Assembly (NCBI GenBank): GCA_008632985.1
Contig: QPGO01000110.1
Span: forward strand, 186,001-250,000
Direction of reading: 5' to 3'
From: Psammoneis japonica
Lineage: Eukaryota
DNA: 64,000 nucleotides
Every line of letters starts with the position of its first letter. Position 1 is the stretch's first letter. The position numbers and the translations under genes were made by a program. This document shows, one piece after another, positions 3,487-64,000 of this stretch. Below the pieces are notes generated by a model. It made no database searches. It saw nothing but the letters and a program-made list of their open reading frames with translations, and was not told the DNA's origin.

Positions 3487-3517
3487 TAGCGAGATGCAGC
3501 GAAAACGTCGCTACAAA

Positions 3518-14730: not shown

Positions 14731-14745
14731 GCGCGCATCAATCTG

Positions 14746-17090: not shown

Positions 17091-17104
17091 CAATGTCAGC
17101 ACAA

Positions 17105-32199: not shown

Positions 32200-33230
32200 A
32201 TTCGTGTTGCTTTTCTGCACAAGCACCCACTGGCAACCCCCACGTGTGTTTCTACGTGTGCTCTCGTGCTGATGTTGCCCTTTTCAGACAGCATTTTGCT
32301 GAGTCCCCTGTCAACCTTTTGGCCCCTTCTGCCATTGGTGCACCCTTTTATCTCCATGATGTGCAATGATTTTCAGTGGAAAACGACTGGCATTGACACT
32401 TTGTGGTTCGCATGCTTGTTGTCTCATTTGGTGATTTTTTGTGGATTCGGTGCGATTTCTGCACAGAATCCAGCACAAGTTCTACGCGCTTCAGAAACAC
32501 ATGCCGACAGTCATTGCGTCTCCGACACGATCAACTTCCATCCTCACCCGAAAGCCCCCAACAATTTCTTTTGCTCCTGCTGGCCACTCAAGTTCTTCAC
32601 CTCATGTGGTGAAAGTGCTGTCTCTGTTGTGGTGCCTGCGAGTGTTCGCATGGACAAACCATCGGCATCATCTGACGACCGTCCATTTGCTGCGCGGATC
32701 GGTTTTTCTGTGCAAGACTCAGCGTCAATTCTGCGTGAGAACAACATTTCTTCCGACGACCTTCTCGTCACATCACCAAGAATTCCTGTTTCATCCTTGC
32801 AAGTCACGAACATCCCCTTTTCCACTTGCTGGCCCACCAAGATCACTGTTCCGAGCAGTGAACTGCACATTGTTGTTCTGGTTCATGCAATTGTGAAATT
32901 CAATCAGTCTTTGTTGAAGACAAAAGATTCTCTCTCAGAGGCAAAGATTTTCTCTCAGAGTATGCGCTGACTTTGAATTCTCTACTTAACTTGATTGTCC
33001 TTTGCTGTGGTGGTTTGGGTGCCTTACATCCTCTCCGAAAGAAAGCAACAATCTCATTCTGGTGCAATTTTTCCTTGACCTTTTATCACTGGTGCGTGTC
33101 GCTGCAAAGCGGCGCGTTGACCGACTGATCGCACGATGTTCTGCCGCACTCTCCTCGCAGGGTGCACTGGAAGTGTGGGTTAGCCGGCGCCGGTGTTGCT
33201 GGGCAAAGGTGTGATAGCACTTAAAATTAG
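32200..33230 (+). repeat. Dispersed repeat, copy 1 (about 1 kb; copy 2 at about 60865-61885), part of a decayed element with a minus-strand ORF
   Basis: Colinear homology visible at the DNA level and between ORFs 32179-32970 and 60865-61698. Confidence 0.9.
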
Positions 33231-33434
33231 GTTTTGGTTTTTTTTTTTGTGTTGCCATTCGTGTTGACAGAAAAAAACTTTTCCCAAGCGGTTTTCATGT
33301 CATGCCTTTACAAGGTTCTTATCTTCAACCACAGGATGGGTCAGGGCGGAGGGCGCTGCATGCAATGCGCTGCCGCACTGAAAGTCGTAAAGAGAACACA
33401 AATCGAATCTAATTACTAAAGCATTAAAAACACT

Positions 33435-41208: not shown

Positions 41209-42658
41209 TTCCCGCGCAAAGGATGGGAAAAAAAAAGCATGTCAAGAAACGGGACATCTTCGTGACACCAGTTATGTGACACGTCATTCGGAATCAATTT
41301 GATTGGAGCATGGAAGCGAAGTCCTTCGGATTCGCAGGTGGTGAAAGTGACTATTTAAGTAGCTTGAAGATATAGTTTGTTGCTGACGTTAGCTTCTAAA
41401 TTCTTCATATGTGAACTTGTTCGATGGAATCGAATCGGTAAACGAGTTCACAACAGACAAGTTGTTCTTCTGCAACATGCCGTCTTGCATGTCCCTCGTC
41501 CTTATGAGACAACCAGCAGACCCCCCCCCACAACACTGTTCCACCCAACCAACAATGTTCTGCTGGAAATCTTGCAACCCAGAACCTGGGCAAGAAATGC
41601 AGCGCTTGGAGTTGAAAACAGAAAAATGACCAGATGTTTGTCTCGTGCTGTTGCCAGCTTGTGGCTTTGTGCTTAGAAAATGAACAAGCCCAGCCCACAC
41701 CCAACAGGAGATGCCAAAATCACAGGCCGCAAAATCAATCAAGCGCCAATCTCCGACAGCATGTGGCATGTGGCACATGACCAAAAAGTCTCATGTCACA
41801 AGGAGTGTGCAGTGCTGGCACAATGGCTGGCCCAGAGCTGTGGAGCACATTTTCCTTTGAAAAACCAAAGAAAAATGAAGCAGCTGACACTCAAAACACT
41901 GCCAAGAAAATTTGCAGTTGGCGCACAACATTTTGCACAGAAAGCACATGGTGCAGAAGAGTGAAAAGGCAAAGAGCATCATTGCCATGGTGGCAACAAT
42001 TCTGCCAAATGTGTGCACAAAACAGAGCATCCCTTCAGGACCTTTGGCGTCTCTGTTGTTGGCGCAACTGCCCCATGACCCGCACAGCGTCCCCGGGAAA
42101 GCTGGGGCATGATGTCCAATCACACACATGGGACAATCCTGCAGATGCTTGTGCAGAGTTGCAGTCCAAGGGTTTCATGTCAACAGCCACAACAAGCAAG
42201 TTGTGCAGTGGCAGGAAATTTAAAATGCCCGTCAGCTGTGAGGGGGGCCTCTGATGACTCTGGCACATGTGAGGGCCGGAACAGGAGGGGCAGCAAGTTG
42301 TCAACATCTGCCAAGGAAGACATCAATGTCCTGGGTCTCCAAAGCAGGTGCAGAGAACAAGTGGTGGCCATGTGTGTTGCAAAAAGCAGCAAGCAGTTTT
42401 GTGCAATTTTGGGTTGACCGCTGTCTGGACAAGTTCTTCAAGTTGCCTGAGCAGCCACACAGATCACAGCAATGATCAGCCCATCCAAGCAAAGACACTG
42501 TCAATGCAGCCAAAAAGAACAAATGTGGGCTGGGGCAGCACAAATGTTCTTTGAAAACCTGTCTTTGTTGCCACCTCACATTTTTGGGGAGACAGAGCTG
42601 CAACTCCGCTGTTGGAAAGACACAAGTCAGATTTCCAAACCACAAAACAACGGCTTTG

Positions 42659-42854
42659 TGTCAGCCTGCTCATCCACATGTCGTGTGATGGACAGACTGG
42701 ATGCGGATGATGGCTGGACCATTTGGACAGATGAGCAGATCTCTCTGAGATCTGCTTCTCACTTTCTCATCTGCTGGTGCTTGTGTTGTCACAGTCCTGG
42801 TGCTTCAGGGAGTCTTTCATGCCTCCATCATCATTGACCTTCGGCATTCTGTCA
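42659..42854 (+). repeat. 5' LTR
   Basis: tgtcagcc...ttctgtca; matches 51135-51330 at 176/196 with no indels. Confidence 0.97.
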
Positions 42855-43032
42855 GGTTGTGGCCTTGCGCTGTGCCACAGACCTCTGCACCAAGCTTTCC
42901 ATTTTGACCCATTTGTTTTGTGAGCCGATCGAGCGAGCCTCATTGTCTGATCAGACAACTTTTTATCTCACTTTCCCGGCATTTTTTACGCTCGTAGAAA
43001 CGTGCCAGATTTCTGTGCGTGCATGACCAAAA

Positions 43033-45083
43033 ATGGCTCCACCAACTAAAACCATGGCGTCTTCCGACCCCACAAAGCCCGCTCTTTCATCCATTGCAGA
43101 GATCCACTGCGAATTCGAGGCACATGCAACGACGCCACATCTGCACAATTGCCTGAACACGATTCATGCGGACTCCATGACTGATCTTGACCCGTTCTTT
43201 GACGACCCAGAGCACACGCAACCCAAGAAAATTTTGCGGACACACTTCGTGATTGCTTCATCCATGAAGCATTTCCACCCTGCACAGCTGATCCTGCGGA
43301 TGTGCAATCAATCAAGACGATTGTGGATCAAGCCCCGTTCCGACTTGTTGACTCTCAAAGACCTCGTCCAGTCCGTTTGACAACTCCGATCTTGTCAAAG
43401 ATGATCAAGACGAATCTCCTGAACAATGAGCAATCTTTGTTTGTTCTCATCTCCACCCAACACACATGTGTTGATCTGGACATGACATGGAATTGTTGCA
43501 ATTGGAACGAATTCTCGCTCACACCCCACCAGCAGAATTAGCAGCCTCCGTCTTCTTCTCAGAAAACTGCAGGACCTGCTACATTGACTGTGAGTGACTT
43601 GGTCAACGCACTCAATGCATGCGCGTCGAGCCATGCTCCGCCTTCTACAGCTTCTGCCAAGACATCTGGAAGCACCACATCTTCTGCAACATCGAAATGC
43701 CTCTTCAATCCGAACACACTACCTCCAGATGTTTGTGCACGCTGCGACCGCAAAGAAGATGGAAAAGTCACTCTTCAGAGCTCTCTCATCCCTTGTGACC
43801 ATGGATTCCATCACTGTGTTGATTCATCCAATCGCATCATCCTCAACGATGGCACCCTTTTTATCATGAGCTCGACTCCTGACCAGAAAATGTTGTTCAG
43901 GGAACCTCCTGCATGTCATGACGACTCTCCCCCTGGGATGCGAGCATGGCATCAAAATTTCCAACGTCATGCCTTTGATTCAGGACACTGCACACATCCA
44001 CTGTGGTGTTTCAGCAAGGACCACGGTGGTGAGAAGGGCTTCGAGATCGGAAACGGCAAGGATGATGACTTGCCTCAACGCATGTGTGTCCACTGCAAGG
44101 AGGCTCAGAGCTCTCCACACAAGATCCTGTCCAAGTCGGATGTGTTCCCCAAAAACAGCAAATGTTGTGGGATTGTTGCATCATGCTGCGGCAATGGACA
44201 CAAGGCTCTCAAGCAGATTGTCTGCGAGAATCATCCTGCTTTTGACCACGATGCTGCTGGACTGGTTGACTCCCATCCTGTCCAAGGCAATCATTCATTG
44301 ACAGACTGCCACATGATCTTCAATGATTTCCTGCAGCTGCGTGCCTACATTTTTGATGCGGACTCTACGTTGAATGATCCACGAGAGATGACTGTTGTTG
44401 TCAAGAACACCAAGCACTCCAAGTTCTTGTCTCGAGCCACCAGAGATGAACGGAAGTCTCCAGCTGTGCAGAAGAAGTGCGCGGATGCACAGATTGTCGA
44501 GACTCTCTCTGATTTCCTCCACCTGCCAGATGGTCCATTCCTTGCCACTCGTACGACGCAATCCAATCCCTGCTGTACATGGAATCGAGCAGCTGCTGAT
44601 GCGCGACGCACACCTGTCAATGTCAATGCTCTCGAGATCCCTGAGATGCCCACTCATGAACCAGTCGATGAATCTGCCACTGAAGATGCTGGCACGGAGT
44701 CTCCGCCTCCGGATGCATTTGATGCTCTTTGCGATGAATTGCACAAACTCGAGATCCCTTCTACGGACGAAGATCGACTTCTTCACCATGCACACTCAGC
44801 TTCAGTTTATAAACTGAAAAATGCTCCAAATGAAGCCTCCAAGAAACCATGTCTTGTCTGCTCCGGAGAGCATTTATTTGATGACTGTCCGGTCCTGAAG
44901 AACAACCCGTACATCAAGGGATTTCACATCCGTTTTTGTCAATTCTTAAAGCGGGAAGCAGCTGTGCGTGCTTCTGAGTTTCAAGGACCCCAAGGATCAC
45001 TCCCACCCCATCATGAACACCCTGAAAATCCGCCCAAGTCTGGCACTCCACCCTCGGATTTTCAATCGGGCCATCGCAGCTAG
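43033..45083 (+). pseudogene. Copia gag (disrupted)
   Basis: ORFs 43033-43380 and 43584-45083; zinc knuckle CLVCSGEHLFDDC. Confidence 0.8.
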
Positions 45084-47178
45084 TTTCGGATCTCCGACGC
45101 TGCCCGTTTTCTCCTCACCGAGACAAGACTAACGTCAGCGGGATGACCTTGAAAGAGGGACTAACCGTCTCGTCATCTGCCACTGAAATGCCTCTTTCCT
45201 CGCAAATTGATGTGGATGCCACCCCTTCCACCACCGCGACGATGTCATTTGATGCCAGCAAGTCACCAGATGATGACCCTGCTCTTCAAGAACCTGCCGT
45301 CGATGCTGCACCTGCTCCGGATCCTTTGGAACAGGGGAGGGAAGACCCAGAAACACCAGATTTTGAGGAACATGTTGACCTCACCTACGATGACATGGCT
45401 GTTGAAGATGGTTTTGCTGCCGTCAATTCTGTTCGTGTTGCTCCGATGGATTCATGCCGAATGAGTCACTCTCCTCAGCCAGAACTGCTCCGCTCCACTT
45501 GTTCTGTCAATGGGGTAAATTTTGCTCCGAATGAGCGTTGTGCCCAGTTGGACACTGGTGCTGATGTTGCATGTGCAGGCGACCGTGACCTCCTCCGCCG
45601 ACACCAAGACTTCACTCCGTCCCATCCCTGTCCCCTTGCCGTCAATCCGGCACTTGGCCACCAAGCTGTCCCAGTTGGATTTGGATGTCTTCACATCCCT
45701 GCAGAGAACTCTGCCGGATGTGTTGAGGTTCGTGCATGCTGCCACCCACAGATTCAATCTACGTTGGTCGATGAGCGACTCCTCCTTCGTCAAAATGGTT
45801 CTCGTTGTGCAGATTGCAATGTGGACTGCACCCTCAAGTTCCATGATCTCGGTTCCTGCAAGTTTGTTGCACGACACCGATTGCGCAAGAATCAGGACAT
45901 CATTGTCCATGGGAAATTGATGAACAGCAAATGCTTCACTCACCCTCTCATCCTCCCGGAATCCAATGATGAATTGGACGCATCTGTTGAGCGCCTCAAG
46001 ACCAGTGACCCTTCCTTTGCCAATGAGTGTGAAGCAGTTTCTGTGCACATGATTGAAACACATCGTGCCCGCCAACATGACGCTCTTCGTGCTGAACACA
46101 AGTTGATCCCCAGAGTGCATCAGGATGTTCCTTTTGAGCAGCATGCGGAGAAGACTGTTCCTGTGCAATCTCTCAAGGCCGACACGGAACGCCTTTTATG
46201 GCATCAGCGACTTGGTCATCTGAGTGATCACCACCTTTGTCATGCCCATGAACACATTGACGGCATCCCCAAGTTTGCCCACGGAACTTCTCCTCTTGAC
46301 ACTTGTCCCACATGCATGCAAGCCAAGCAGACAAAGGAACCTGCTGGTCCGAACACTGCTCTTGCTGCCACCCAACCACACCAAGGCCTCACGGTTGATT
46401 TTTCTTTCTCTGGCCTGCGGTCCAAGAACTCGGAGCGCACTGAAGACTGTGTTGGATTGAATGGCGAGACTTGTTGGATCACTGTCTACGATCATAAAAC
46501 GAAGCATCTCCATGGTGCGACCCGGGTCTCCAAGGCAACCCCTTTGAATTGGCTTCACCACTTTCTGGAAGAGCACTCGCCAAAATGTCCAGACAAACAT
46601 GCATTTGTGGATCAAGGAGGTGAATTGCATCAAAACCCAGAGGTTCGGTGACTTTTCGAGGATGACTTTCACTGTGCAATTTGTCCTGCAGGAAAAGATG
46701 CTTCAAACCAGAGTGGCCCAGTGGAGCGCAGTCATTTGACTGTTGCCAATGCCATCTGGGCGATGCTCATCGGTGCCAACTTGCCCACAAAATTCTGGCC
46801 CTGTGCTTTTCATCATTTCATTCGAATTGGCAACGCTGTGCCATCCCGCGGACAAACTGCTGCCCCGATTGCTCTTGCCACTGGTCGGAAGGATGATTTC
46901 AAGAACTTTTGTACATTTGGTTGTTGAGCATGGGTGCGTGCGTTGAATCACCGCCCAGCAAAATTTTGGTCTGTTTCTCGCAAGGGCACATTCTTGGGCC
47001 ATCTTCCGGACACTGCCAAGAACATCCTTTGGTGTGACATTGAGACATCGCGTGTCAAGCTTGCCAAGCACATTCGTTGTGATGAGGGCATGAATGATCT
47101 GCCCCACGACTCTCTCCCACCGAATGTGGTTCACTTGGAACACACTCAAGATGGCAAGGCTTTGCCTGCCGAGACTGA

Positions 47179-48220
47179 CATCCGCCGTCGGATGCGACGC
47201 ACCCACGATGCCTGGCACCCGGATGCCAACCTCTCACTCTATCGTCTCTCACCAACTGCGCCTCTCCTCATCTTTCCGGTCTTCACAGGTCCAACACGCA
47301 ACGGCCACTGGTCCACGCTCGTACGCCTTCGCCCCATCCCCAACGGAGCGGTGCGTTTCATGCACCTCGACAGCCTGTGCAGCAGGGACAGAACTGCAGC
47401 CCTGGAGCGAGTCTTGCAAAGTGCCATTGATCAAGACAACGACACTCCCGCCCTGTGGAAAACCGGCCCCACCAACTGGATGCCGGCGCACACCCCTCAA
47501 CAGACTGAAGGCGGACTGGATTGTGGGGCATGGACCATTGTGTGCATTGTCCTTGTCCTCCAGGCATGGCGACGTGACCCGACGAACCTGATCACTGCTC
47601 ACACCCTACGAGTGCGCACCCGAGTGCCCAACGATGATGAGCTCGGCTTGCAACTGTGACAATTGCTGCGCCTGTTCATCACAACCTGCCAGGCCAAACA
47701 TGCACAACAATTTGAAACGCTGCTGGAACTGCTCGCCTTCCGATCATGACATGACCTTTGCTGCACTGCCCCTGCCACTGCCCGGCGCATGTGACAAGCG
47801 ACGCGCTGGGTGGCAATTTGACGGAACCATCAATGTCCCTCGGAGCTGACCAGACACATGACCGTCAACATGGTGGGGATCAGCAGTGCCAGGGGACATG
47901 AAAACCTGGGGGGCCTCGCTGTGCAATGCAGCCCCAGGTTCCCTGCCACCTTTTGAGATGACAGGGCGGGGTGACACTCGTGGAGCCCGCCCTGGGCACA
48001 ACGTCCCAGAGACCTCTTTCGGGACCTGAGCGGGCGCCTTTGACCATGCGTGTCAAGGGCGCTGACTGCCTGCAGGAGACTTGGTTTTTGCCACATGGCA
48101 GCCCTCTGGAGGTGACACGTGCTTTTGTGGTTGCCAGGTCCCCTGGCATGAACCAGGGAGAGCACAAAGAATGCTGCCGCCTTAGCCTGCTTAAAACAGA
48201 TCCCCACACACACACACACA
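47179..48220 (+). mobile_element. 5'-truncated non-LTR retroelement-like insertion carrying a Ulp1/C48-type protease fragment, (CA)8 tail, 14-bp TSD
   Basis: cctgccgagactga (47165-47178) / cctgccaagactga (48221-48234); NGHW..HLDSL..PQQTEGGLDCG; excision restores pol (LPAETE-ESTMDEL). Confidence 0.85.
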
Positions 48221-49713
48221 CCTGCCAAGACTGAAGAATCTACGATGGATGAGCTTCACTTTCATGGGAATCCTTTTGCCAAGACCATTGCGCGCACAAT
48301 GAAGGGACCGTTTGCTGATCCGACATTTGGACTCTCCTTGGCTACGGACGATCTCCATCGGCGCGTGTTTGTTTCTGACATTGAGCGTGGTTCTCCTGCT
48401 GCACGTCTTTTCTCTTCTTTGAAGGCCACCCGCAACAAGATCAAGGGTGCGCATGTCGCATCGATTGATGATCATCCTGTCTTCATGACAGAGGAGGCTG
48501 TCAAATGTTTTCAACAAGTCCATGATTCAGGCAAGACTCACTTTGAAATCGACTTTGCGCCGGAACGTCAACTGGACTCCCAGGCTCTACAACGTGCCCT
48601 GATGGAACATGACATCCATGCACCAACTCCTGACCCTGATGATGAACATGTCCCGGAAATTGCCGCTGCTGACACACGCACCATTGCTGCCATCCGTCAC
48701 CCTGACAATGATTTTTCTGATGTGGACGATGATGACGTCCCTCCGCCGATCCACGTCGACTGCGACAATGGTGTGGTCAACACATGTGCTGTTTCATCTC
48801 ACGCGATTGCTCTGGAGGAACAAGCGTCAGGTGCTTTCACTCACCATCCTCTCAAGAAGTTGGACACCTGGCCCGAATGGCATGCGGGTGAATTCAAACA
48901 ACTTGACCAATTTCATGAGTTGGGGATGTTTGGTGCACTGATTAAACGTCCGAAGGATGCCACAGTCCTTTGTCCACATTGGCAACATGATCTCAAGCAT
49001 GATGGTGCGCGATGATCTTGACAATGCTGCAATGGATCTCCACGTGCTGCGTCGATCCTCCACCGTCTTCATTTGACCTGCTCCTCTTGTGTGGAACAAC
49101 CCATCCAACGCATGTTTTTTGCCCTTGCTGCAACCATGAGCTGCCCTGCACATGGTGGCGATGCTCGGGATGCATGTTCACACTCTCCGCGACCATCACA
49201 CCCTGTCTGTGTTGCCATTGACGAAGCATGCGCGACTTGGTGCAAGGCTCGGTTTGGTGTTGATTTGGATGGGACCGTGGTGCTTCCAGTGCAACACGCC
49301 CTTCAGGGACACCCAGAAGCTGGCGTGCTCTGGGAGACGCACATCAACAGCATTTTGTCCGATGTGAATCTACTTTTTCGCAATGCTGCTCATGACAAAT
49401 GCATCCATTCTGCTGCTTTTGAGGGACACAAGATCTTGCTCCTCCGTCAGGTTGATGACTTCTCCCTTGCGTGTCCTGAAGAGTCCCTTGCGATCAAGAC
49501 ATGTGACAAGATTGGCAAAGCTCTTCAATTGGAATCGGAAACTTCCCCGCCTTTCAAGCATCTTGGCATGATTGAAGAGTTCAATGGTGTGGACATTCAT
49601 CAACACATGATGATTCCATTGGTGTTGCTGTTCACAGCTGTGTTGATCGGGTTTGTACCTCGCATGGATGGTCGACACCGACAGACGAAGAACTCGACGA
49701 TGACTGCAAGGCT

Positions 49714-50109
49714 GACGCGTTCCAGACGTAGGTGGGAATCCGTGTGACATTGGGCCCGTAGACTTCTACGTGCGAGCTCCGTAGTAAAATTATACGGTAA
49801 TTAAAATGTCAATGATCGCCAACAGAAAATGAGGCAATTTTGCGAACGCACAAACTCGCACATGATTGAAGTACATCATTTTTTACTTAGCCAGTTACAT
49901 TCTTCAGACATTGAAGAATGTAACTGGAGCATTATTGTTTCTATAAATTTGTTATATAAAACGTCTGGGGCTTCGCAAAACAGCGAGTCTGGACAATTTT
50001 TTTTAAATATCACACGTAGAAATCTACGTACGAAACATACGACGGATGATAAAAATTATTGTTGTCACACGTCAGTACTACGAGCTCCCACCTAGGGCTG
50101 GAACGCGTC
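49714..50109. mobile_element. 396-bp MITE with 24-bp TIRs and 4-bp TSD GGCT
   Basis: gacgcgttccagacgtaggtggga vs reverse complement of the right end gacgcgttccagccctaggtggga (22/24); GGCT at 49710-49713 and 50110-50113; AT-rich interior with TA intact. Confidence 0.92.
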
Positions 50110-51134
50110 GGCTGCGCCAATTCCGGTTGACTCCATTCGTGAACTGTGCACTGCTGTTGGTCCAGCTGAAGGAACCCCGGAACATGCGGAGTTACAACAG
50201 GCTGCTGGTTTTGGGTGCCGCACTCTCCTTGGTGAATTGTTGTGTGCATGTGTTGTCTGTCGATTGGATGTTGGCTGTGCCATCACCACTCTCTCCAAGT
50301 TCTCCACCTGCCCTGCTTTTGTTCACTGTGGTGCACTCAAGGGAGTGTGCAAGCACCTTCGACGCACCAAGCATTGGGAACTGAACTGCAAAAAGCCTGC
50401 CCGAGACTCACGACTGCCCACCTGCCCCTTCGAACGTCTCACTCCGGACCTGACCCTGCCTTCGTTCCCTTTCTCAGAATGTGATCATCAACTTGTTGCC
50501 TTTTTGGATGCTGCACATGGCAATGACCTCCGCAACCGTCGCTCTACGACCGGCTGTGCTTGCATGTTAGCTGGCGCTGCCACATCCTTTCGATGAAAGA
50601 CCCAATTGGTGGCTGCTGCAAGTTCTGCGGAAGCTGAATTCTGCGCTGCTGGCACTGCTGCCAAGCATGTCCTTTGCCTTTGTCACATCCTGCATGACCT
50701 GGGCTTCCCTCAGACGAAGGCAACCCCGTCATGCATTGACAACAAATCGGCGATCAAGATCATCAATCATTCGATCCCGACCAAGCGATCCCGTCACATT
50801 GAGATCCAGTTTTTTGCGATTCAAGAATGGAAGGAAGTGGGCAAGATTGTCACAAGACATGTCCCTGGCATTGTCAACCCCAGTGATGACCTCACCAAGG
50901 CCCTTGGCTGGGCACTGCATGCTCGCCACGCTCGACGCATGATGGGACACTGCTGTTGACATTTTTTTTCGTGGTGGCATCCCTGCTGCGCATTGCCCCC
51001 CTTGTTTGATGGCGCATTGGGCATGGACACTTGTCGTGTCCCCTGTCTGGTCTCTCTGTTTCCCTGCATCATCCCTGTTCTTTGTTTTGATCTGCACTGC
51101 TGTCTGTGTTGAGACATTGCAGATCAGGGGAGGG

Positions 51135-51330
51135 TGTCAGCCTGCTCATCTACATGTTGCACGATGGACAGACTGGATGCGGATGATGGCTGGACCATTT
51201 AGATGGACGAGCAGATCTCTCTGAGATCTGCTTCTCACTTTCTCATCCACCAGTGCTCGTGTTGTCACAGTCCTGGCACTTCAGGGAGTCTTTCACACCT
51301 CTGTCATCATTGACCTTCGGCATTCTGTCA
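51135..51330 (+). repeat. 3' LTR
   Basis: Preceded by a polypurine tract and followed by TSD CTTTG. Confidence 0.97.
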
Positions 51331-53884
51331 CTTTGGCTCCAGCCACCCTGACTGGGGTTGAATGTGACCCTTGCATCAACCACCAGACTGGAGAAGAGCA
51401 GTCGCTGTTGTCAGTTTTTCTTCAAGCCACATCAGAGGCAGTTGCCAGCTGTCCATGTGGTGGCCATTGCTTTTTCAATGATTGCTCTCATCAGTCTCAA
51501 CATGCCAGCAAGCAAAGGCAGTTTTTCCATTTGCCACTTCTGGTCCAGGGCATTTTCACAGGCATGGGCCAACCTTTCCATCAACTTTCAGCCGCACCAC
51601 ACCACACCACAAAATTTGAATTTTCTTCAAAAAAAAATGTTGCACACAAAGAAGAGGTGGGCACAAAACTGTGCTGCAAAAGTGGTTGTCTGTTTTTTTC
51701 ACACTGAGACAAACACTCTCATGATCAAACACACATGGAACTCTGTGGGTGTGCCACCCAGAGCTGCTGCACATTTTGGCTTTTGGAAGTGAGTTGTCAG
51801 TCTGCTGCCCTTTGAGTCAGAATGTTGTGAGATGGAACAGGCATCTGTTGTCAGTGGCATCGGCACTCAAAAGCCGGTCTTTTCACAAGACACCTCTCTT
51901 GTTCTTGTGTCTTGTTTGCAGAAAAAAGTTGAAGGGGAGGGTTTCATGATGGCCCTGTTGCTTGCAATCCAAAAAGTTGTTCAGCCCCGCTCAGGCAAAA
52001 AATGAACCACCAAGTGGCCCGCAACTTGTGCAACGTGAAACTCGCAACTGACACAATGAAGTGGTGCCAGATGAAGCAATTTGCAGAGACAAAATTTGTT
52101 GGAGACAAGACAAATGGAGACAAAAGAAAAGTCAGGAGACAAGACAGATGGAGATGGGGACAAAACAGACAGAGACAACAGAGACAAACAGCATGCTGCG
52201 ACCATGATGATGATGCAAGCTGGCCTTGCAGCAACCCTGCTTGAGCCCCATTGCTCTCAGCTTTCTCTCTTGTCTGTGTCTTTTCTCTGGGTTGGCTCTG
52301 GAGTCATCTGTCTGGGCATTGGGAAAGTGTCAGGCCCCCCCTGTTGCACCCCAAGTTGTGTGTCTTTGTTTCCACATTGCCCGCTTGAGATGAGCTCCAG
52401 CTTCAGGTGGACCTTGCTCCAGCAGGAGAGACTGCATGGCATTTTGCTCTTTTTGACATCTCACAGCACAAAAACTTTTGATGTTTTTGTGAGCTCATGT
52501 TCTCTGATGACGTCTGCAGAGTGCAGCCTTGCACACATGCACACACTCTGATTTTCACAAAGAAGGGTGTGCACAAAGAGGCACGCTCAACCATGCTGCA
52601 AAAGAAGTCATTTGTTTTGATGTTGAAAACAAAAAATGCACGGGCCATGGAGCTCTTGCACAGGTTTCTGTGGGTGCAATGTTGTGGCATGCCCCACCCA
52701 GAGCCGGGGGGGGCCAGAGCCGGGGGGGGGTCTCTGGGTGACGTGTTCCAGTCCCAGGTGACACACAAAACGACAATCAATTTTGAGTGCAAATCATGTG
52801 TCTCTCGTGCATGAAGCATTTGCATGTAAAATGCTTGAGCAGATGTGCTTTTGCAGGTGCATGGAGTGTGGACATCTAATTGGTTTTTTTCATTGGCACG
52901 CAAGTTCTCATGTGACATGTGTCGTGAACTCCCTCAGCAGACTCAATGCTGATTGCATGTCAGTGCATTGCACACAGAGATTTGTCTGCAGGCAGAAGTC
53001 ATGCAAGACAGGATCACAGAAAAATTGTTCATGTCAACATCAAAATGACAGCAATGTTTTTGCCGAAAATCATCCGTTGTGTTGCGATTTGTTCGCTGCA
53101 ACAAAAAACAAAGATTGCACAAAAACAATGACATTGCAGCACTGACGCGAGTCTTGTTGGTGTTGCAAAACATTCAAACTTGCATGAGTCCATGCTTTTT
53201 GGTGGAGAAAGCTCGATCGCAAGTTAGAGACCGTGCAAAAATTGCACAAATGTCATTTTTGTGCACGACTTGGTTCACGCACGGCTGGAACACATCAGGT
53301 GCAGCCTCGAATTTCCTGGGAAAGTTGGCAGCTTCAGCCAGACTTTGACCCCTTGCGCCAGAGCCAGAAACACTCAAGAGATTGGCATCGTCAGTCTGCT
53401 GCCCTTTGAACCAGCATGTTGTGAGATGGAACATGCGCTCATTGTCAGCGGCACCGGTGCTTGAAAACCGGGCTTTTCACCAGGCATCTCTTGTTCGCAG
53501 GAAGTTGAAAGGGGGCAATTTTTTGTGATGGCTCTCCACACAACTGACCTGGTGGCCCTGTTGCTTGCGACCCCACCAAAAGTTGGCTGGGCCCAGCCAG
53601 CTGGCTAGAGCTTTGCATTGGCATGGCATTGGTCGGTTTGAGAAACGCATCAGGCATGAAAACGGGGTTTCGCAATCACCCTCCGCGTGGCACCTGCCAC
53701 CATTAGCAGCTAGAGTCTACGGCACCACGTGGTTGGGCGCAGCGCGTCGCGTAGTCTTCTTCTTCGTCAGCCCGTCGCAACATCGCGCAGTCTCCGCGCC
53801 GCCAAGTGATGCTTGTGTTGCGGTGTTGGTGTTCAGTCACCAGTCACAGTCACGCCGCACAATGATTGTTAGGTCGCAACGACC

Positions 53885-56800
53885 ATGAGCCAAGTCAGTC
53901 AAGAAGAACCACCGGAGGCTCGTCATTTACCGAGAGCTTCGTCCCCATTAATCTCAGAACTGACAAAGTTGAACTTGAATGAATTGCGACTGTACGGAAG
54001 ATGCAATGAACTCGAAGAGCTTCAAGTTATTTATGGCAAGGTCGATAATAACGCAGCCAATGCGGTATTTGTTTGCGGAAATTCGGGTGTAGGAAAAACG
54101 ACGCTGGTTGAAACATTTCTAAGGGGTTTGTCATCATCATCGTCGTCCTCGAGTCGTAAGCGGAGAAGGCAGTACTCTGTCTCGGCGAAGTTTGATCAAC
54201 ACGGGGTAGGTAAACCGTACTCAACGTTAGCGGTGGCCTTCAACAGTGTATGCGACCAAATTCTTTTAGACTCCGACTCGAAAGAAGAAATAATAAAGGA
54301 AATTCGCATGACAGTTGGATCCGAAGCAAAAGTATTGAAGGATGTCATTCCTCAGCTTCATGAGTTACTTGGTGGAGAGGATCAAAGCCCCTATGAAACG
54401 ACGGAGGAAAGCGCATCAATGGAACGAGGAAGTACTGCGGAGCAGGCATTCAACAGAATAGCATTTGCCTTTCGAGCCTTTCTTAGGGCTGTTTGCTCTC
54501 ATATGGTTCACCCTCTTGTTATATTCATTGATGATCTTCAATGGGCTGATTCATCGTCGCTCAAGCTGGTAGAGTCCATGCTTACAGATTCGAAGTCCAA
54601 CAACTTGCTCGTTATCGGTGCGTACAGAGACAATGAAGTTAGTCATGACCACAAATTGTCCAAGATGATAGAGCAAGTGCAAGAACAAAGATCAATTTAC
54701 AATATTCAAGTGAACAATTTCGAAGTTGCTACTGTCAATGAGCTGCTTACAAACGTGCTCAAGGAGGAGGATGCGAACGCGACCATGCCGCTTGCCGAAC
54801 TTGTACACCATCGTACCGACGGAAATATTTTTTTCGTGCTGCAATTCCTCGATCTTCTGTTAGAAAAGAGGTTGCTTCAATATTCTCTTGTCTCTTACAA
54901 GTGGACTTGGGATCTCGCCGGTATCAGAGAGAAAACCAGTATTTCGGACAATGTGGTGGAACTGGTTGCTAGTAGATTGAAAAGATTGGACGAAAATGTA
55001 CAGTATGTTCTTCGAATTGCAGCCTGCCTTTGGTCGACGTTCGACGTGACCTTTTTGGAACCGGTTCTGTGCCGATTAGAAGAGGGAACGGCCAGGTTTG
55101 GAAGCAAGGAGGATGTCATTCGAATTCTCGACTTGGCGGTTCAAGAGGATCTGGTTGAAAGGGAATCGGATTTGCGATATCGATTTTCTCATGATCGGAT
55201 TCAACAGGGAGCGTACTCTTCGCTTCCACAAGGCCGAGAACGAGATCGCATGCACATACGGATTGGCGATATTGTATTGAAACTAAGCAAAGAATACAGT
55301 GGATCGAAGGAGTGGTTGATGTTTATTGCCGCCCATCAATTGAACATTGGAGCAGCTTGCATTATTGACCCAACCAAACAAGTGGAACTGGCTGAATTGA
55401 ATCTAGAGGTGGCTAAGATCGCCATTTCCTTATCTGCCTTTGTTCCAGCAGCAGAGTACCTCCAGTCGGGGATCGATATTTTGGCGACTCAGCAAGATTC
55501 TTGGGACAAACACTACAGCTTGAGCTTACAGCTCCATACTGCATCGGCAAAATTGGAGTTTTGCAATGGAAATGTCGAACATGGCAAAAATGTAGTCAAC
55601 GAGGTATTGGCCAATGCCCATTGTTTACGAGACAAGCTCCCAGTGTACTTTGACTTAATTGATGCTCTTCTCCATAAGGAGCGCAAGTATGATGAGTCAA
55701 TGAAACTTGGACTTGACGTATTGTCGCAATTAGGTGAGAATCTCCCTAAGAAAGTGTCGACATTGCGTATCGTGCTGGCTCTTCTCAAAACGAAGCGAAT
55801 AGTACGGAAACTGAGCAACGATGACCTTAAACAACTTCCCATGATGAAAGATGAACACAAGATCGCTGCGATGAATGTGCTGAACTTTTTGGTTATTTGT
55901 GCATTTTGGGCGGAAACGCCAGAATGGTTTGCTTTTTCAATTCTGCGCATGATGCAGCTTACTCTCTGCTATGGGGTCACCAACGCTTCTTCGATTGCTT
56001 TTGCGAATTTTGCCGTACTCTTGTGTTCACTTGGTGATTTCAAAGAGGCGTATCGTCTTGGAAAGGTTGCGCTGGATCTTGTTGAGAGACTTCAGGCAAA
56101 GGATTGCATAGGGCGTGTGCTTTTCTTGATGTATAGCATTATAAACCCCTGGCAGAAGCCTCTCCACGACTCCCTTGAACCTCTCTTACAATCTCACAGA
56201 ATTGGAATGGAAAGTGGAGATATCGAGACGGGCGTTAGCAGTTGTGGAAGCTACGGGCTTGCATATCTATTCTGCGGTTTGCCGCTGGTCGTAAGTACTA
56301 TCGCCATTCTCTTCTGTTCTATCGGCTTTGTTTTAGGAACTGATTCACACTTACCAACCAATCATACCGTGTTGTATGAAATTAGCCTCTTGAGAAGGAT
56401 TTTCGTTCTCACATTGAGCTCATGAGGGAATACAAACAGGCAACTGCATTGCCTGGAAATCTTCTTACTTGGCAGTTCATCCTGAATCTTATGGGAGAGT
56501 GTGAAAATCCTTTGGTGTTGACAGGAGAGGCCATGAATCAGGATACGTTCCTCGACAGCACGAAAGAAAAAGATGCTTCATGGGGGATGTACTGGTTGCA
56601 TCGACTTCAGCTTGCATATTACTTTGGCGATATAGACTTGGCCCTAGATATGGCCGAGAAATTCCGGAAAAATTGTAAGAACGTGCAGTGTCACTTTATG
56701 ATGCATGTTTTTACCTTCTTTGAGGGCCTTTTTTTTCTGGAGATGGTGCGAAGAACCAAAAAGCGCAAGTACAAGACTCGCGCTCAACGTAGTATCAAGA

Positions 56801-57351: not shown

Positions 57352-59739
57352 GTCGAACTAAGTTAAACCGTCCACTCGACAAATTCATACAGCCTTTTTT
57401 CCATCCGGGGCATCTAACGTCCTGCAACGCTGAAACGTACCAAGCGCTCAGCCATCATGCCTTGCCGGAGGGCGAACCACCTCACGGGCATGCCGGCACA
57501 CTGTTGTCAGAGTGCAGCCACAAGTGCAATTACATCAGAGAAATGTGCAGGTGGTCAATCCCAACGATGCAGCGCATTTGGCGTGCATTTGTCTCTCGAG
57601 CATTGCAACAGCTTTTTGCAATGAAAGCAAGTTGTGGTGTTCTTTTAAAAAGGCTTGTGCTGGCATGAGGATTGAGCAAGGAAAAGTTCTGCAAGGACAC
57701 AGCTCTTTGCTCACAGTGCCATGCAAACAAGAGAAAGGACTCTGGGCACATTTCAAAGAGGAGGTCAGGAGCACTTGTGTGTTGGGTCATCTGGTCATGC
57801 ACCAGGCATGGACAAGCTCACTGCAGGCTCTGTGGCCATCACTGCCACCTCCATTGCTGCGGTTGACAAACTGGGAGCATCAGAAGGGCAAAATGGCATT
57901 GGAGTCAGGGGCTCAAAGAAATCACGTTTAGCCAGAAACAGCAACAATGTCCCAAGAATTCATGGGCGTGCCACATTTGAGATTTCAGTTGTCAACGAGG
58001 GGCAACTCTTGAGCACACTCACAGCTTTTGCTGACTCAATTCCAGTTTCAGCCAATCAAGCCCTTGAAGTCAGTCAAACACCAACTTTGAAAAATGGCAG
58101 CTTGTCCAGTGCTGCTGCTGTGTCAAGCCTGCCTGCAACTGGCAACATCTGGCCCCAAGCGAAAGAGCTCCATGTGACATGGGCAGCAAAATTGTCAAGC
58201 AACGAACATGTGGGGACAATTGCCAACAAAAAAGAGGCAGTTTTGTGAGTGCATCTCCTCCTCCACACTTGAAGTGCATCATTTCCAGTTTGTCTGGGTG
58301 TGTTTTTCAAACACAGAAGAGCACGCCCAGCCTGTGTTGGCTTTCGCACAAATGAAAAAAATGGGAAGAGCCTTTGGCTTGGCAAAGCAAAGAGCATGAA
58401 GCAGTTTTGCAGCAGACCACACACAGAAAGGCATGTGCATGACATGTGACATGGTCCAAATGACCCTTGTGTGTCACAGTGCTTCAGCACGAGGCCCCAC
58501 CTGGAGCCAGGGCATGTCTCTGGCACTTCTTGAAAACTGGTGGTGGGTGCAGCTTGCCTGCAGGAGCCAGACAGCCCTCACAGCAGGGGCTTCACACAAG
58601 ATTTGCAAGGTGTTTGGGGGCCCTCAGAGTCATTGCAAAATGGTGTGGGAGGGCTGTGAGAAAAGTGGATCTGGGAAAAAAGCTTGTGCTGCATCAGAGC
58701 ATGCAACACAGTGATCGGCACCTCCTTTCTCATGGTGATTTTTGTTCCTTTTATGGATGTCATTTTTGTGGTTTCAAACCTCATCAGTTGTGTGGCGGGC
58801 AATGACATGTCAACTGTGATGGATGAGCATTTTTGTGCTGTGGGATTTGACCCCCTCTCCCTTTGAAGACAACTCATTTCACTGTGAAACAGGGGCACAT
58901 TTTCCCTGTGAGAGTGCCCACCCTCTGTCCCTGCAAAACCTGCAAATTAAAATCATTTGCGCTGCTCCACAAACACTCCACTTTGTTGTTTGCATTGAAG
59001 CCAAATGGCGCTGATGGAGACAACACCCTGGAGTTTGCACCAGCAGCTGCAGCTTGCTTTCTTGAAGTGCCGCTGCTGGCAGCCACCTTGTTCACCACCA
59101 AAAAGTTCAGAGCACGTTGTGAGAGTGCAGCGTGGATGAGCCAACACTGCCAACAGGAACGGCAATGTAGACTCACTGGTGCATCTGGTGCCGCTGCTTC
59201 TGGAGCAGGTGAGTTTGCAGCAGGAGCTGCTGTTCCATGACTTGAAGTGCCGCTGCTCTGTTCCACCTCATTCATTGCCAAAAAGAGTGGAACATGTTGT
59301 GAGAGCACAGAAATGTGGCAACATGGACTCACCAGTGCATCCGACACTGCTGCTTCTGGAGCAGGCAAGTTTGCAGCAGAGAAGCACTGTTGCTCTGACC
59401 CACCTCATTCAGCACCAAAAAGCACAAAGCACATTGTGAGAGCACAAAACAGATGAGCTGACATGAGCTGCAACACACTCACTGGTGCATTGGTGTGTTT
59501 GGCAGCACCGCTGACTCCATGGACACCGGTGTGTTGTGCAAGACGTTGAGCACCCATGTGGTGCAAGATGTTGAGCACCCAGCTCCACCCCTGCAACTCA
59601 AAGACAAAACACAGAAAGAAAGCATGTGAGCAAGCAAAAAACATCTTAAGTGCCACAGAACGCACTTGCTGGAACAGCCATGGGAACAAGCACCACCTGC
59701 ATGTGCACCACACTGCACAAGGTGCTGCTGCACAAATGA

Positions 59740-60210
59740 CAAAGTCATGTGGCAATGACCAAGTTCGCCCCACACCTCCCATGCTGTGGATGGTTCATCA
59801 ACGACATGTTTAGAGCATGTGCCAGAAACAGCAGAGAGACTTGGAAAGCCTTTAAAAATGAGCCTGACAACTCAGGCAACCTCCAATGGGTTGCCTCCCC
59901 ACTCTCCAACTCTGCATTGTTTCTGGATCTGGACGTGGAAATTGGAGAAGATGGATGTGATGCAAGCGAACATGTCAAAAACCAATGAAGCTCTTTTTGT
60001 GCATGCCTTTTTTGAAGAGTGTCACATGTGGCAAAGAACTTTTTCATGCGTGTGATTCTGAGAGCTGCAGGAACAAGCACCGCCTCCAGTCTTGCTGGAT
60101 CTGGACATGGAAATTTGAGAAGATGGATGTGTTGTCAGTGAATGCATCAAAACACCAATGAACCTCTTTTTGCACATGCCTTGTTTTTGAAGAGTGTCAT
60201 TTGTGGCAAC
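59740..60210 (+). mobile_element. Penelope-like reverse transcriptase fragment, with a local duplication (59923-60034 / 60095-60209)
   Basis: FINDMF..W.AFK..LQW..LSNS..FLDLDVEI, then a KPMxLFLxMP-like segment (KPMNLYLYIP-type thumb motif). Confidence 0.55.
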
Positions 60211-60864
60211 TCATGATGATTCTGGATGCAAAACTCTGACATGCATGATTGCACCAATGCTGCAGAAAAGAAAGTTTGTGATGTGCATGCACATGACAAC
60301 ATGCCAGCAGCTCAGCATTCTGGATGCGGCAGATTCATGACAGCACACTTGCAATCACGAAACTCAAGCTGCACCCAAATCAAAACCCATCTTGGCCAAC
60401 CAGAAGGACAGCAGGTCTCACCATGCATTGAGCTGCTGTCATTGGCCAATGGGGCAAAGTCTTTCACCACCATGGCCGGTTGTCAATTTGCAGATTTGTG
60501 ACCACATGTAGAACCCACATGAATCACAACAGCGCACACTCTCACTTTTTGACTTTTGGGGAGAGGGTGGGCTGTTGTGAAGTGTGTGGAAAATTGCACA
60601 CGTGAAAAAAATGCTGAAAACACCGTAGACCAAGGGGCTGCAAAAATCTGGGGAAGCATGAAGAGGAATTTTTAAAATGGAGGGTGGGTCACATGCATGT
60701 GTGAAGCAAACTGCACACATGCAAACACATGCACATGAGTTGAGGAAGGCCAAAGTGGAGGCCAAGTTCAAACTGATGACCATCAAAAGGAAACCAAACC
60801 ATGCATCACAAAACACAGATGTCAGCTCCAACCAAGTTCAACATTGCATGCATTTGATTGAAGC

Positions 60865-61885
60865 TTGTGTGCTTTTCTGCACAAGCACCTGCTGGCAGCC
60901 CCTTCTTGTGTTTCTGCATGTGCTCTCATGCTGATGTCACCCTTTTCAGATTGCATTTTGACAGGTCCCCCTGCAACCTTTTGGATCCTTCTGCCATTGG
61001 TGCACCCTTGTCTCTCCATGATGTGCAACAATTTTCAGTGGAAACAGACTGGCATGGATGCCTTGTGGCTTGCATGCTTGTTGTCTCATTTGGCAATTTT
61101 TTGTGGATTCGGCGCAGTTTCCACACAGAATCCAGTGCAAATTCCACGTGCTTCTGGAACATCCACCAATGATCAGCACGTCTTTGATGCGATCAACTTC
61201 CTTCCACACCCAAAAGCTCCCAACAATTTCTTTTGCTCCTGCTGGCTGCACAAGTTCTTCACCTCATGTGGCAACAGTGCTGTCCCTGTTGTGGTGCCTG
61301 CGAGTGTTTGTTTGGACAAACCATCTGCATTGCCTGACGACCATCCATTTGCTGTGCTGATTTGCATTTCTGCGCATGACTCAGTGTCAATTCTACGTGA
61401 GAACAATGTTTCTTCCAACGACCTTCTTGTCATGTCACCAAGGCTTCCTGTTTCATCCTTGCAAGTCCTGAACACCCCCTTTTCCATTTGCTGGCCTGCC
61501 ATGATTGCTGTTCTGAGCAGCGAACTGCATGTTTTTGTTCTGGTGCATGCAATTTTGAAATTCAGCCAGTCTTTGTTGAAGACAAGACCCTCCCTCAGAA
61601 GCAAAGGTTTTCTCCCGGAGTTTGTGCTGACTTTGAATTCTCTGCTCAACACGATTGTCCTTTGCTGCAAGGGTTTGGGTGCATTGGGTCCCCTCTGAAA
61701 GAAAGCAACAACCTTGTTCTTGTGCAACTTCTCCTTGACCTCTTCTTCTGCACATCACTGCAAAGCGGCACGTTGACTGACTGGTTGCACAATCTTCTGC
61801 TGCTGCACCCCTTGCAGAGTGTGCTGGAAGTGTGGGTTGGCCAGCACCGGCGTTGCTGGGCAAAGGTGCAACAGCACTAAAAACT
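60865..61885 (+). repeat. Dispersed repeat, copy 2 of 32200-33230
   Basis: Colinear homology; many differences are TG/CA/CG/TA exchanges. Confidence 0.9.
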
Positions 61886-64000
61886 GGATGTCTCTTGTGT
61901 TTTTTGTTGAAGCTTGTGCAAGAAAAGCCAGTGAGATGTCAGATGAAATGCAAAAAAAACAACTGCAATTAAAAATTTTGCAAAGGAAAGCAGAGACCAC
62001 TGCATTGGGGCCTCTGACATGGCAGACTCCATGTGCTGACAATGTGTTCCAGCTCTCTAGCCAGGTGGGACCTTGCACTGCTGAACTGTGACATCAACAG
62101 TTTTTTGGATCATGTCGCACGTTGCACACGCACATTTTTATGTGTGATGTTCTGCCAAATTGTTTCATGCTCCCTGTTTTGCAAAGCCAAAGGCTTTCTG
62201 TTTTCAACATTTTTGAGAGAACAAAAATGCACTGGGTGCATTCTTTAATGTCTGTGAAACACACCCGGGCAAACTGTCAATGATGTGCTCCAAGTGTGAA
62301 GGAGGAGATGCGTTCGTAACACTGCCTCTTTTTCTGTTGGCAGTCATCATTTGCATTTTCATTGCTTGACAAATTTGCTGCGGAGCTCGCACGTAGAGCT
62401 CCATGGACCAAATGTCACACGGAGTCCCGCCTGAAGCTGGAACCTGTTTGACAAAGGCGGCCGGCTTGTCTGGTGCATTCTTGCCCACAGACACAACCTG
62501 TTTTGCACTGCACGGCCGAATTGCCGTGACACCTCCTGAGCCAGAATTTTGTCACCATGACAAAACCACGGCTGCTGGTGACATGCTCTTTTGTTGTGGT
62601 GACTGCTCAACAAGACGTTTGCTTTCCCTGACACCACTTGCACACTTGACAACAGAAACCAAGAGGTTTGCATCAAGCAAGTCACATTCCTTGTTGTGCA
62701 CTTTCCACGGGCTCAGGAAGCATCAGTGCTGATGCTGTTTTTTTCTCTTCAGCTCCCATCATGGCACAACCCAACACATCTCACTTGAAGATGGTCATCT
62801 CCATTGCCATCAACTGGAGCCTGCCACCACTGGCATGTCTGCCAGCTTTGGTGCTCCTCTTCCTGTGGGAGTGACAACAGACAAATCATCCACGCCCTCT
62901 CCCAACCGCAAGCAAGATCCTCAGAGGAACCATCACAATGGTGTCTGACTTTGCCCTTGCATCTGCCATGTGAAAAAGAAGAATGCAAACAGAGTGTGAA
63001 GGACTTCATTGATGCTGCTGATCAAAAGAGATGTGTTGTCATCATTGCCTGTCTTGTGCCAACAACAGGAGGCCACGTGGAAGTGGCAATGTCAAGAGCA
63101 ACAACATGAGGGAGGTGTCCTGCATCCTGCTGTCACCTGTTTTGGAATTCTTGTTCACCACCTGAATCTTCCGGCATTCATTGATGGAAAAACATTGATT
63201 TGGGACAGACACCATGCAAGTCTGTGCTGCTCTTGATCGCTTGCTGTGCAGCGAGAAAACTGATTCAAGCGGTGGCCTTTTGATGACATGGTCAGCTCCA
63301 ACTGGTTTTGCATTTGAGCACTTGGGTCTCTTTTTGGACAATGCCCTGAGAATCGACTGTGGAAGGCAGTTGACCCAAACAGCATTTTGTTTGCCAATGA
63401 GCCACACCAGTGTTGCATGACATTGGCAGTTGTGCTGTTGTAAGATTGCACACTGAAGCTGCTCCAGTCAGCTGCAAACACTCTGTCAATGACAACGGCG
63501 GGGACCCAAGACAACCGACATCATGTTCCAGCTCTGTGACAGAGCAGCCCCAATCAAACACTGCTGAAATCAACTCTTGATTCTTGTTGCCAAACTCTTC
63601 CAGATGAGAAGCCCTGTCATGTGACCCCCAACAAAGCAAAGGACAACCACAATCTCAATTTGGATCATGACAAATGTCACCGCAACAATTTCCAAGCTTC
63701 ATCTCATGCTGCTGCATTGTCAACCAGGCATTCAAACAATGTGGAATGGGAGTTTTTTGCCACCTCCATCAGTTGCGACAGATTCAACAATGCACGCTGA
63801 AACTTCAAATGGGGGCTGAGGCAACACAAACCCCGAGACAATGGTTTGAAGACTCTGCCTCCTTTTTGCAACTTTGTCTCTTGCTGCAAGTTTTCTGACT
63901 TTCTCACGAGCTTCCTTCTCTGCTTCACCAGCTTCCTCGACTGCTGCAAAATTTTCCTTGACTTTCTCATGAACTTCCTTTTCTGCTTCCAGCATTTCTT

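Follow-up and report, generated by a model that had tools for sequence, protein, structure and literature searches.

How do the two long terminal repeats (LTRs) of a single retrotransposon come to differ at many positions and by only one kind of change? The question is raised by a Ty1/Copia element of Psammoneis japonica (contig QPGO01000110.1 of assembly GCA_008632985.1), which lies in a stretch of 64,000 nucleotides at contig positions 186,001 to 250,000; this whole stretch is called the window, and all coordinates below are positions in it. Alignment of 42659-42854 with 51135-51330 by MAFFT gave 196 gap-free columns with 20 mismatches at 13 sites, a raw divergence of 10.2% (20/196). All 20 mismatches were transitions, none was a transversion, and all of them lay inside dinucleotides that were pyrimidine-purine (YpR) in both LTRs. 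The 13 sites comprised seven TG/CA swaps (5 + 2), four CG/TG sites (1 + 3), one TA/TG site and one TA/CA site, while the dinucleotides unchanged in both LTRs included two CG/CG and no TA/TA, the 3' LTR carrying both surviving TA of the pair. YpR dinucleotides covered 96 of the 196 positions, and the probability that all 13 independent sites fell there by chance was about 9e-5; that of 20 transitions among 20 mismatches was about 3e-4, even assuming that transitions make up two thirds of changes. At the 100 positions outside YpR in both LTRs, no difference was found. Our results indicated that the element very probably underwent hypermutation of TpA to TpG or CpA, which acted in place and was directed at repeat domains, together with a slower decay of CpG.

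The element represented a single insertion. Its TG...CA ends, the identical 5-bp target-site duplication CTTTG on both sides and the purine tract before the 3' LTR showed that one insertion took place and that the LTRs were identical at integration. An initial annotation of the locus had counted 20 mismatches at 13 sites, without indels or transversions and in 7/4/2 classes, which the re-alignment reproduced exactly. Its claim that the differences arose in place after integration was upheld by the perfect target-site duplication and by the presence of both TG and CA outcomes in each LTR. The rate, which it had placed far above background, was reflected in a per-LTR TA loss of about 0.92 (estimated below) versus 0 differences at 100 non-YpR positions, a comparison that gives a relative bound only, and its warning that dating by LTR divergence would be inflated was borne out by 10.2% raw divergence against 0/100 at non-YpR sites. 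Editing before integration, by an ADAR-like activity on RNA or an APOBEC-like activity on complementary DNA (cDNA), is contradicted as the sole cause and was given hardly any credence. Editing of RNA would leave the LTRs identical, so that edited RNA cannot be the source of LTR differences, and editing of single-stranded cDNA would run in one direction, which does not fit LTRs that each contain both TG and CA. The flanking repeats and a copy of a DNA transposon also shared the signature; the one observation that fits some contribution of this kind came from environmental loci and is given with them.

The direction and specificity of the changes were read from the polyprotein of the element, using columns in which one residue was present in at least 75% of at least 8 homologs (741 columns, 12 intact homologs). 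Among 33 consensus Tyr columns (TAY), none kept Tyr in the window copy; 16 had become Cys (TGY), 13 His (CAY) and 4 Phe (TTY), and none had become Arg (CGY), which implied that the product of a first hit escapes a second one. Other residues were largely kept, including Cys (11/11), Trp (14/14), His (31/34) and Gly (53/57). A-to-G change at codon position 2 affected 16/33 TAY codons versus 1/34 CAY, 1/19 AAY and 1/48 GAY, and T-to-C change at codon position 1 affected 13/33 TAY codons versus 1/44 TTY, 1/36 Ser (Ser to Pro, CCT), 0/11 TGY and 0/14 TGG. The A:T to G:C change was confined to TpA not only here, where 29/33 Tyr columns were TGY or CAY, but also in a pair of miniature inverted-repeat transposable elements (MITEs; 19/21) and in the LTR pair of the environmental locus L035, both described below. 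Over the whole polyprotein only 2 of 1394 residues were Tyr, versus 3.0-4.1% in the 12 intact homologs (1.9-4.1% across all 30 matches). It had five in-frame stops, all three aligned segments were in frame +2, and the copy is young by ordinary measures. Arg columns behaved differently from Tyr columns: 33 of 48 were still CGN and 15 had become TGN or CAN, a CpG loss of 0.31. The TA left in the window were enriched in TTA/TAA and depleted in ATA/TAT, which hints at a wider sequence preference; no preference for the +1 base was found, TAT being converted in 85/185 cases and TAC in 55/122.

The signature, which had first been framed on the LTRs and was indeed present there, was not limited to them, since it spanned whole repeat domains and the DNA-transposon copy. 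The window was a mosaic of repeat-like domains (about 37.5 kb; 37,503 bp) and gene-bearing domains (about 22.8 kb), with 4.2 versus 39.1 TA per kb, 28.5 versus 53.7 CG per kb (observed/expected ratio, o/e, 0.47 versus 0.97), 104 versus 76 TG per kb and 103 versus 73 CA per kb, respectively. The o/e of the 12 non-YpR dinucleotides differed by at most 0.10 between the two domain types, the summed o/e of the YpR dinucleotides was conserved (3.86 in repeat and 3.92 in genic domains), and G+C was equal. A conserved YpR sum with all other dinucleotides unchanged is expected if TA and CG both turn into TG or CA and nothing else changes. In the mutated domains, which cover more than half of the window, the o/e of TA was 0.06. 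Around the element, TA per 100 bp fell from 2-7 to 0-1 at about 41500 and rose again at about 53700, with edges sharp to 100-200 bp and a few hundred bases away from host open reading frames (ORFs). The TA-poor domains contained many long spurious ORFs on both strands because TAA and TAG were gone. Loss of TA was local: it formed sharp domains in the window and was confined to the element in three environmental loci, L035, L048 and L072.

A MITE-like element nested in the Copia element allowed the direction of change to be read in a DNA transposon. The nested copy was unmutated, and 31 of the 76 TA of the Copia element sat in its roughly 400 bp (about 77 per kb), versus about 5.4 per kb elsewhere in the element, with sharp edges of contrast. 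Three contigs from other copies of the Copia family, found among the Logan k-mer contigs of run X1 (the one sequencing run in which the element was found), bypassed the MITE (joints 49709 to 50110). A mutated relative of the MITE lay at 62063-62443, and at 21 TA of the unmutated copy it read TG in 9 cases, CA in 10 and TA in 2, the reverse case occurring twice. The presence of an untouched, TA-rich MITE inside a mutated element indicates that the process was over, or had paused, here by the time the MITE inserted, and we infer that it would work in episodes. The MITE family, with one copy untouched and another mutated, speaks neither for nor against triggering by duplication. The nested MITE was both TA-rich and CG-rich, and its summed contig depth in run X1 was 20-50 times that of the surrounding Copia sequence, which suggests a very abundant and recently active MITE family.

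The same signature occurred in unrelated Copia loci from the environment. When metagenomes were scanned with 14 aligned intact homologs, 219 relatives were found, of which 80 were kept; five near-duplicate rows were dropped, and 67 loci had enough columns for analysis. A scan with the window's own reverse transcriptase ORF found no relative, and none of the 80 loci had more than 68.5% DNA identity to the element or matched its LTR. Tyr had changed to Cys or His in at least 25% of the Tyr columns in 15/67 loci and in none of them in 13/67. In the strongly affected loci L035, L048 and L072, the numbers of Tyr kept, Cys and His were 7/20/6, 8/16/5 and 6/11/6, respectively, whereas they were 37/0/1 in L002 and 17/0/0 in L001, which were little affected. 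The LTR pair of L035 had 13 mismatches, 12 of them YpR transitions, and its sites were distributed as TA/TA 7, TA/TG 2, TA/CA 5, TG/CA swaps 2, CG/CG 10 and CG/TG 1. L035 is thus an intermediate stage of the same process, in which swaps are present although CG is almost untouched. Losses of TA and of CpG were separable, with 17/23 Tyr and 6/37 Arg CpG lost in L072 and 1/24 Tyr and 12/40 Arg CpG lost in L042. The strongly affected loci had a modest sense-strand excess of A-to-G change (Cys 86 versus His 54, P = 0.009), which was absent from the window copy (16 versus 13); it fits some contribution of edited transcripts, or else exposure of the non-template strand.

The ancestry of the seven swaps was estimated from closed-form per-LTR losses. 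The CG classes of the LTRs (2 intact, 4 single) put the CpG loss per LTR at 0.5, and the Arg columns inside the element put it at 0.31 (15/48). At these rates, 1.0 and 0.3 swaps derived from CG were expected, respectively, and seven were observed (P < 1e-4). With six swaps and the two single TA sites assumed to derive from TA, the per-LTR TA loss was 0.92, which agrees with the minimum of 0.90 found internally, and the ancestral LTR would have contained about 14 TA and 8 CG, an ordinary composition. Because the CpG loss rates were too low for seven CG-derived swaps and 0/33 Tyr were kept, most of the swaps descend from TA. The initial annotation had derived them from TA or CG mutated on opposite strands; the opposite strands stood, with the refinement that TA is the main ancestor and that CG is expected for only 0.3-1.0 of the seven. 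It had also named a scenario that would overturn its view, with CG at every swap site; this would require 0.8 of the CpG to be lost per LTR and some 20 CpG within 196 bp.

Decay of methylated CpG alone is the corresponding rival reading: all seven swaps would come from CG, and C-to-T change at CA or TG would account for the two TA sites. Diatom transposons are CpG-methylated via DNMT5a according to a published study (PMC9998398), the sequence of the domain bears the marks of such decay (CG o/e of 0.47 versus 0.97, and 15/48 Arg codons changed from CGN to TGN or CAN), and a per-LTR loss of 0.8 is only moderately at odds with the LTR counts taken by themselves. The internal loss of 15/48, however, was incompatible with 0.8 (P = 4e-13), and L035 contained swaps next to ten CG/CG sites and one CG/TG site. 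A nine-fold deficit of TA, the loss of all 33 Tyr with 29 at TGY or CAY, and the loss of 19/21 TA in the MITE would also be left unexplained, so CpG decay as the only process is contradicted and very improbable.

An artefact of base calling or assembly at modified bases of heterochromatin was considered as well, since some long-read platforms make systematic transition errors at methylated motifs. Low-copy parts of the region, among them the TA-free stretch 51303-51600, were matched by Logan contigs of run X1 over 290-781 bp with 0-2 differences. The polyprotein showed coherent changes from Tyr to Cys or His as well as stops, and the same signature was found in metagenome contigs of several projects. 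In view of these observations, an artefact is scarcely credible.

In the preferred reading, TpA hypermutation, which is very probable, the events were as follows. After integration, the DNA of the element and of the surrounding repeat domain was hit by a local mutation process specific for TpA. Because TpA is its own complement, an A:T to G:C transition on one strand or the other turns it into TpG or CpA, and this conversion ran almost to saturation. The two LTRs were hit independently, and wherever a TA lost its top-strand A in one LTR and its bottom-strand A in the other, the pair now reads TG versus CA, a swap. Since the products TG and CA are non-targets, the process is self-limiting and the YpR total is conserved. 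Superimposed on this is the conversion of CpG to TpG or CpA, which is slower, can be separated from the loss of TA and is expected for methylated transposon CpGs; DNMT5a-dependent methylation (PMC9998398) suffices for this component. The data show the signature, its direction and dinucleotide specificity, its action on DNA in place, its restriction to repeat domains and its occurrence in unrelated environmental Copia loci. Beyond that, the activity may be a directed, genome-defence-like one, an analogue of the repeat-induced point mutation (RIP) seen in fungi and matching in its signature the TpA hypermutation of the chlorarachniophyte Bigelowiella natans. As to chemistry, adenine deamination in DNA, rather than a modified thymine or adenine that miscodes, is our preferred guess and a tentative one.

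The same signature might instead be no dedicated defence but a by-product of a DNA modification at TpA in silenced chromatin (e.g., oxidised thymine or methylated adenine), which is miscoding or misrepaired and acts alongside deamination of 5-methylcytosine at CpG. The palindromic target and the near-equal TG and CA outcomes (16:13) fit a symmetric mark, the sharply bounded domains fit a chromatin state, and the loss of Tyr correlates with the loss of CpG. Sequence cannot separate a deaminated A from a miscoding T, and a rate that stays constant over the whole domain is hard to square with the unmutated MITE in it, except if this MITE is a very recent arrival. We know of no TpA mark of this kind in diatoms. 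A by-product of this type is unlikely, though it deserves more weight than an artefact.

Several observations weigh against the preferred reading. Rates, and not an outgroup, are the basis for the ancestry of the individual swap sites, none of which was polarised directly; no unmutated LTR of this family was recovered among the run X1 contigs or the metagenome loci. Contigs of run X1 with at least 80% likeness (5832 in number) differed from the element at 1773 places, transitions occurring at 1359 places versus transversions at 410. Forty of the 1773 places were listed, none of them at an LTR position, and the 35 that were tabulated, leaving out five single-contig rows at 45459-45465, did not polarise the swaps. 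These family variants were a mix of YpR and non-YpR differences between subfamilies, and several sites at which nearly all family copies differed from the element were non-YpR events, e.g., CG in the window versus CA/TG in the family, which implied that ordinary divergence is also present. Run X1 may itself be the source of the assembly, in which case it supports the base calls and is no independent biological replicate. The losses of Tyr and CpG were correlated across the environmental loci (Spearman 0.46, P = 9e-5) and one cause may underlie both, e.g., the time spent in a silenced state, or the two may even use the same machinery. The case for episodes consists of a single unmutated MITE that might just be very young, and the domain pattern is known from 64 kb only.

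The element itself is a two-ORF LTR retrotransposon of the Ty1/Copia type (Table 1). It had two direct 196-bp LTRs with TG...CA ends and a flanking 5-bp target-site duplication, and the integrase preceded the reverse transcriptase, PF13976 scoring above the cut-off and RVT_2 weakly. The closest proteins were Copia polyproteins of roughly 1280-1470 residues, the named ones coming from the diatoms Fistulifera solaris, Nitzschia inconspicua and Cylindrotheca fusiformis. A language-model look-up of a neighbouring host ORF likewise pointed to diatoms, and these two leads are the basis for calling the organism most likely a diatom; it is presumably not the sequenced B. natans strain. In tblastn, Copia polyproteins of 1426 amino acids with PF13976, PF07727 and PF25597 were collinear with the element, and one homolog (P0001) was collinear in the single frame +2 with all three polyprotein parts. 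By tblastn, ORF1 matched over 30 of the 80 metagenome loci, the best at E = 1e-106, and it contained 3 Tyr in 514 residues. Since it is conserved ahead of the polyprotein in these related loci, the family has two ORFs, and ORF1 is possibly an unrecognised Gag of this Copia lineage.

Table 1. Features of the Copia element, the MITE pair and the surrounding repeat domain (window coordinates)
Feature	Positions	Strand	Basis and remarks
TA-poor, CG-poor, TG/CA-rich repeat domain around the element	41500..53650	.	100-bp bins and 1-kb profile
Target-site duplication, left copy CTTTG	42654..42658	+	identical to 51331-51335
5' LTR, 196 bp, TG...CA	42659..42854	+	LTR alignment
ORF1, 513 aa, probably Gag-like	43542..45083	+	no Pfam family; conserved in related Copia loci, again upstream of the polyprotein
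Polyprotein part 1 (homolog residues 18-664; gag-pre-integrase/integrase)	45221..47179	+	frame +2; tblastn, PF13976; Tyr 2/653; 2 in-frame stops
Insertion of about 1 kb absent from homologs, TA-poor	47180..48220	+	gap in tblastn alignment; few run X1 contigs
Polyprotein part 2 (homolog residues 660-1110; reverse transcriptase)	48221..49603	+	tblastn; weak RVT_2; Tyr 0/461
Nested MITE-like element, 27-nt terminal inverted repeats, unmutated	49711..50112	.	inverted repeat 89% complementary; TA positions; contig joints
Polyprotein part 3 (homolog residues 1145-1424; RNase H end)	50111..50950	+	tblastn; Tyr 0/280
Polypurine tract aggggaggg	51126..51134	+	read directly from the sequence, just before the 3' LTR
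3' LTR, 196 bp, with TA at 51151 and 51200	51135..51330	+	LTR alignment
Target-site duplication, right copy CTTTG	51331..51335	+	identical to the left copy
Mutated relative of the nested MITE, polarity test	62063..62443	-	pairwise comparison with the 49711-50112 copy

The family was clearly multi-copy, as seen from the number of run X1 contigs given above, although their summed depth is not a copy number; no RNA dataset was listed with the element. In the insertion between polyprotein parts 1 and 2, the summed contig depth was 51-207, versus 1100-4000 in the remaining bins once the MITE and the LTR-rich ends are set aside, and the run X1 contigs included a joint from 47139 to 48221. The insertion was in-frame, lay between the integrase and the reverse transcriptase and had weak similarity to Ulp1/C48 peptidases (PF02902, E = 8e-4, below the Pfam cut-off). 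One further contig of run X1 joined the 5' LTR (42794) to the 3' LTR (51281), bypassing 8486 bases with 9 other letters between, and may represent either another copy reduced to a solo LTR or an allele that lacks the internal part.

Elsewhere in the window, TA-poor and TG/CA-rich domains were found at 1-2100, 9300-23600, 29400-32300 and 57400-64000, and contained many long stop-free ORFs on both strands without Pfam matches. Some of these were more depleted of CpG (CG o/e 0.1-0.3) than the Copia element (0.5-0.75), as if older. A repeat pair of 1 kb, 32208-33250 and 60870-61907, was 81.6% identical, with one copy at the edge of a normal domain. The copy at the normal edge kept CG where the other had TG (15 sites) or CA (13 sites) and kept TA versus TG or CA at 8 sites, which showed that the mutation load is unequal between copies of one repeat. 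An open frame of 885 codons at 6150-8807 (+) with a Mutator-like transposase domain (E = 4e-41) lay in a compositionally normal domain and was thus unhit, and a short TA-poor island was present just upstream of it at 5400-6100. One mutated domain had an assembly gap of 11 N at its edge (24105-24115). Among the host ORFs, the AAA_16 ATPase at 53873-56425 (+) had no identical or close entry in the protein collection; after its closest relatives, its matches were mostly bacterial STAND-type ATPases or kinases at 30-36% identity, with only a few diatom or MMETSP entries, and on these similarities it may belong to a gene family of bacterial origin. The host BTB/BACK ORF had no protein match at E <= 0.001 in the same collection.

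Among known systems, the closest likeness was to B. natans, as described in a preprint (Mettrop et al., bioRxiv 10.64898/2026.01.13.699255). In mutation-accumulation lines of that alga, the mutation rate of two viral regions integrated in the genome was about 1000-fold that of the remainder; the changes were almost only A-to-G or T-to-C, all of these at TpA, and occurred in only some lines. The 124 TpA-poor, CpA- and TpG-rich clusters of that genome were enriched for reverse transcriptase and DDE domains, and the proven targets, giant-virus and virophage inserts, still had 3.3% and 9.2% of their dinucleotides as TA. An ADAT2-like adenine deaminase was proposed, and ADAR was noted to prefer a 5' U (10.64898/2026.01.13.699255). 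The signature was identical to ours, with change of TpA to TpG or CpA only, on both strands and local, and activity in only some lines fits episodes. The organism here is most likely a diatom rather than a chlorarachniophyte, the targets, which were near saturation (TA o/e 0.06), were LTR retrotransposons, whole repeat domains and a copy of a MITE rather than viral inserts, and no CpG component is reported for B. natans. A literature search, with subscription journals outside its scope, found no report of TpA loss in diatom transposons, and the B. natans preprint was the only matching report.

RIP of ascomycete fungi resembles the process in its repeat-directed transitions in place, its dinucleotide preference, its sharp compositional domains and the ruined transposon frames. 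Fungal RIP turns CpA into TpA by C-to-T change, raises TA and AT content and involves a RID-type enzyme, duplication and a premeiotic stage. The direction here was opposite, since TA was destroyed, CA and TG were raised and G+C was unchanged, so that neither the gain of TpA nor the fall in G+C of RIP was seen. Decay of methylated CpG likewise converts CG to TG or CA on both strands in transposons and covers the four CG/TG sites and about a third of the CGN Arg codons, but it leaves TA alone, was slower here (loss of 0.31-0.5 versus at least 0.9 for TA) and was separable in the environmental loci. With APOBEC3 and ADAR, the process shares clustered, deaminase-type transitions that inactivate retroelements; those enzymes act before integration, on RNA or cDNA and on one strand, whereas the changes here came after integration, affected both strands and also reached a DNA transposon. 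That diatoms possess an episodic, RIP-like defence of opposite chemistry, which would edit TpA by adenine deamination in silenced transposon domains until the targets are gone and would be the same system as that of B. natans, an old immune layer shared within the stramenopile-alveolate-rhizarian (SAR) group, is possible, though less likely than not.

The consequences for the study of such genomes are practical as well as biological. The element looks much older than its real age, and dating by LTR divergence is badly inflated; transposon libraries and similarity searches will miss saturated copies, and the spurious ORFs on both strands of TA-free domains can contaminate gene sets. The partial stages in environmental contigs, together with the contrast between a mutated element and an untouched MITE, provide material for timing the process and finding its enzyme. 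If it holds true in diatoms as well as in a chlorarachniophyte, TpA hypermutation would be a widespread genome defence of ecologically dominant algae and a counterpart of fungal RIP with the opposite chemistry.

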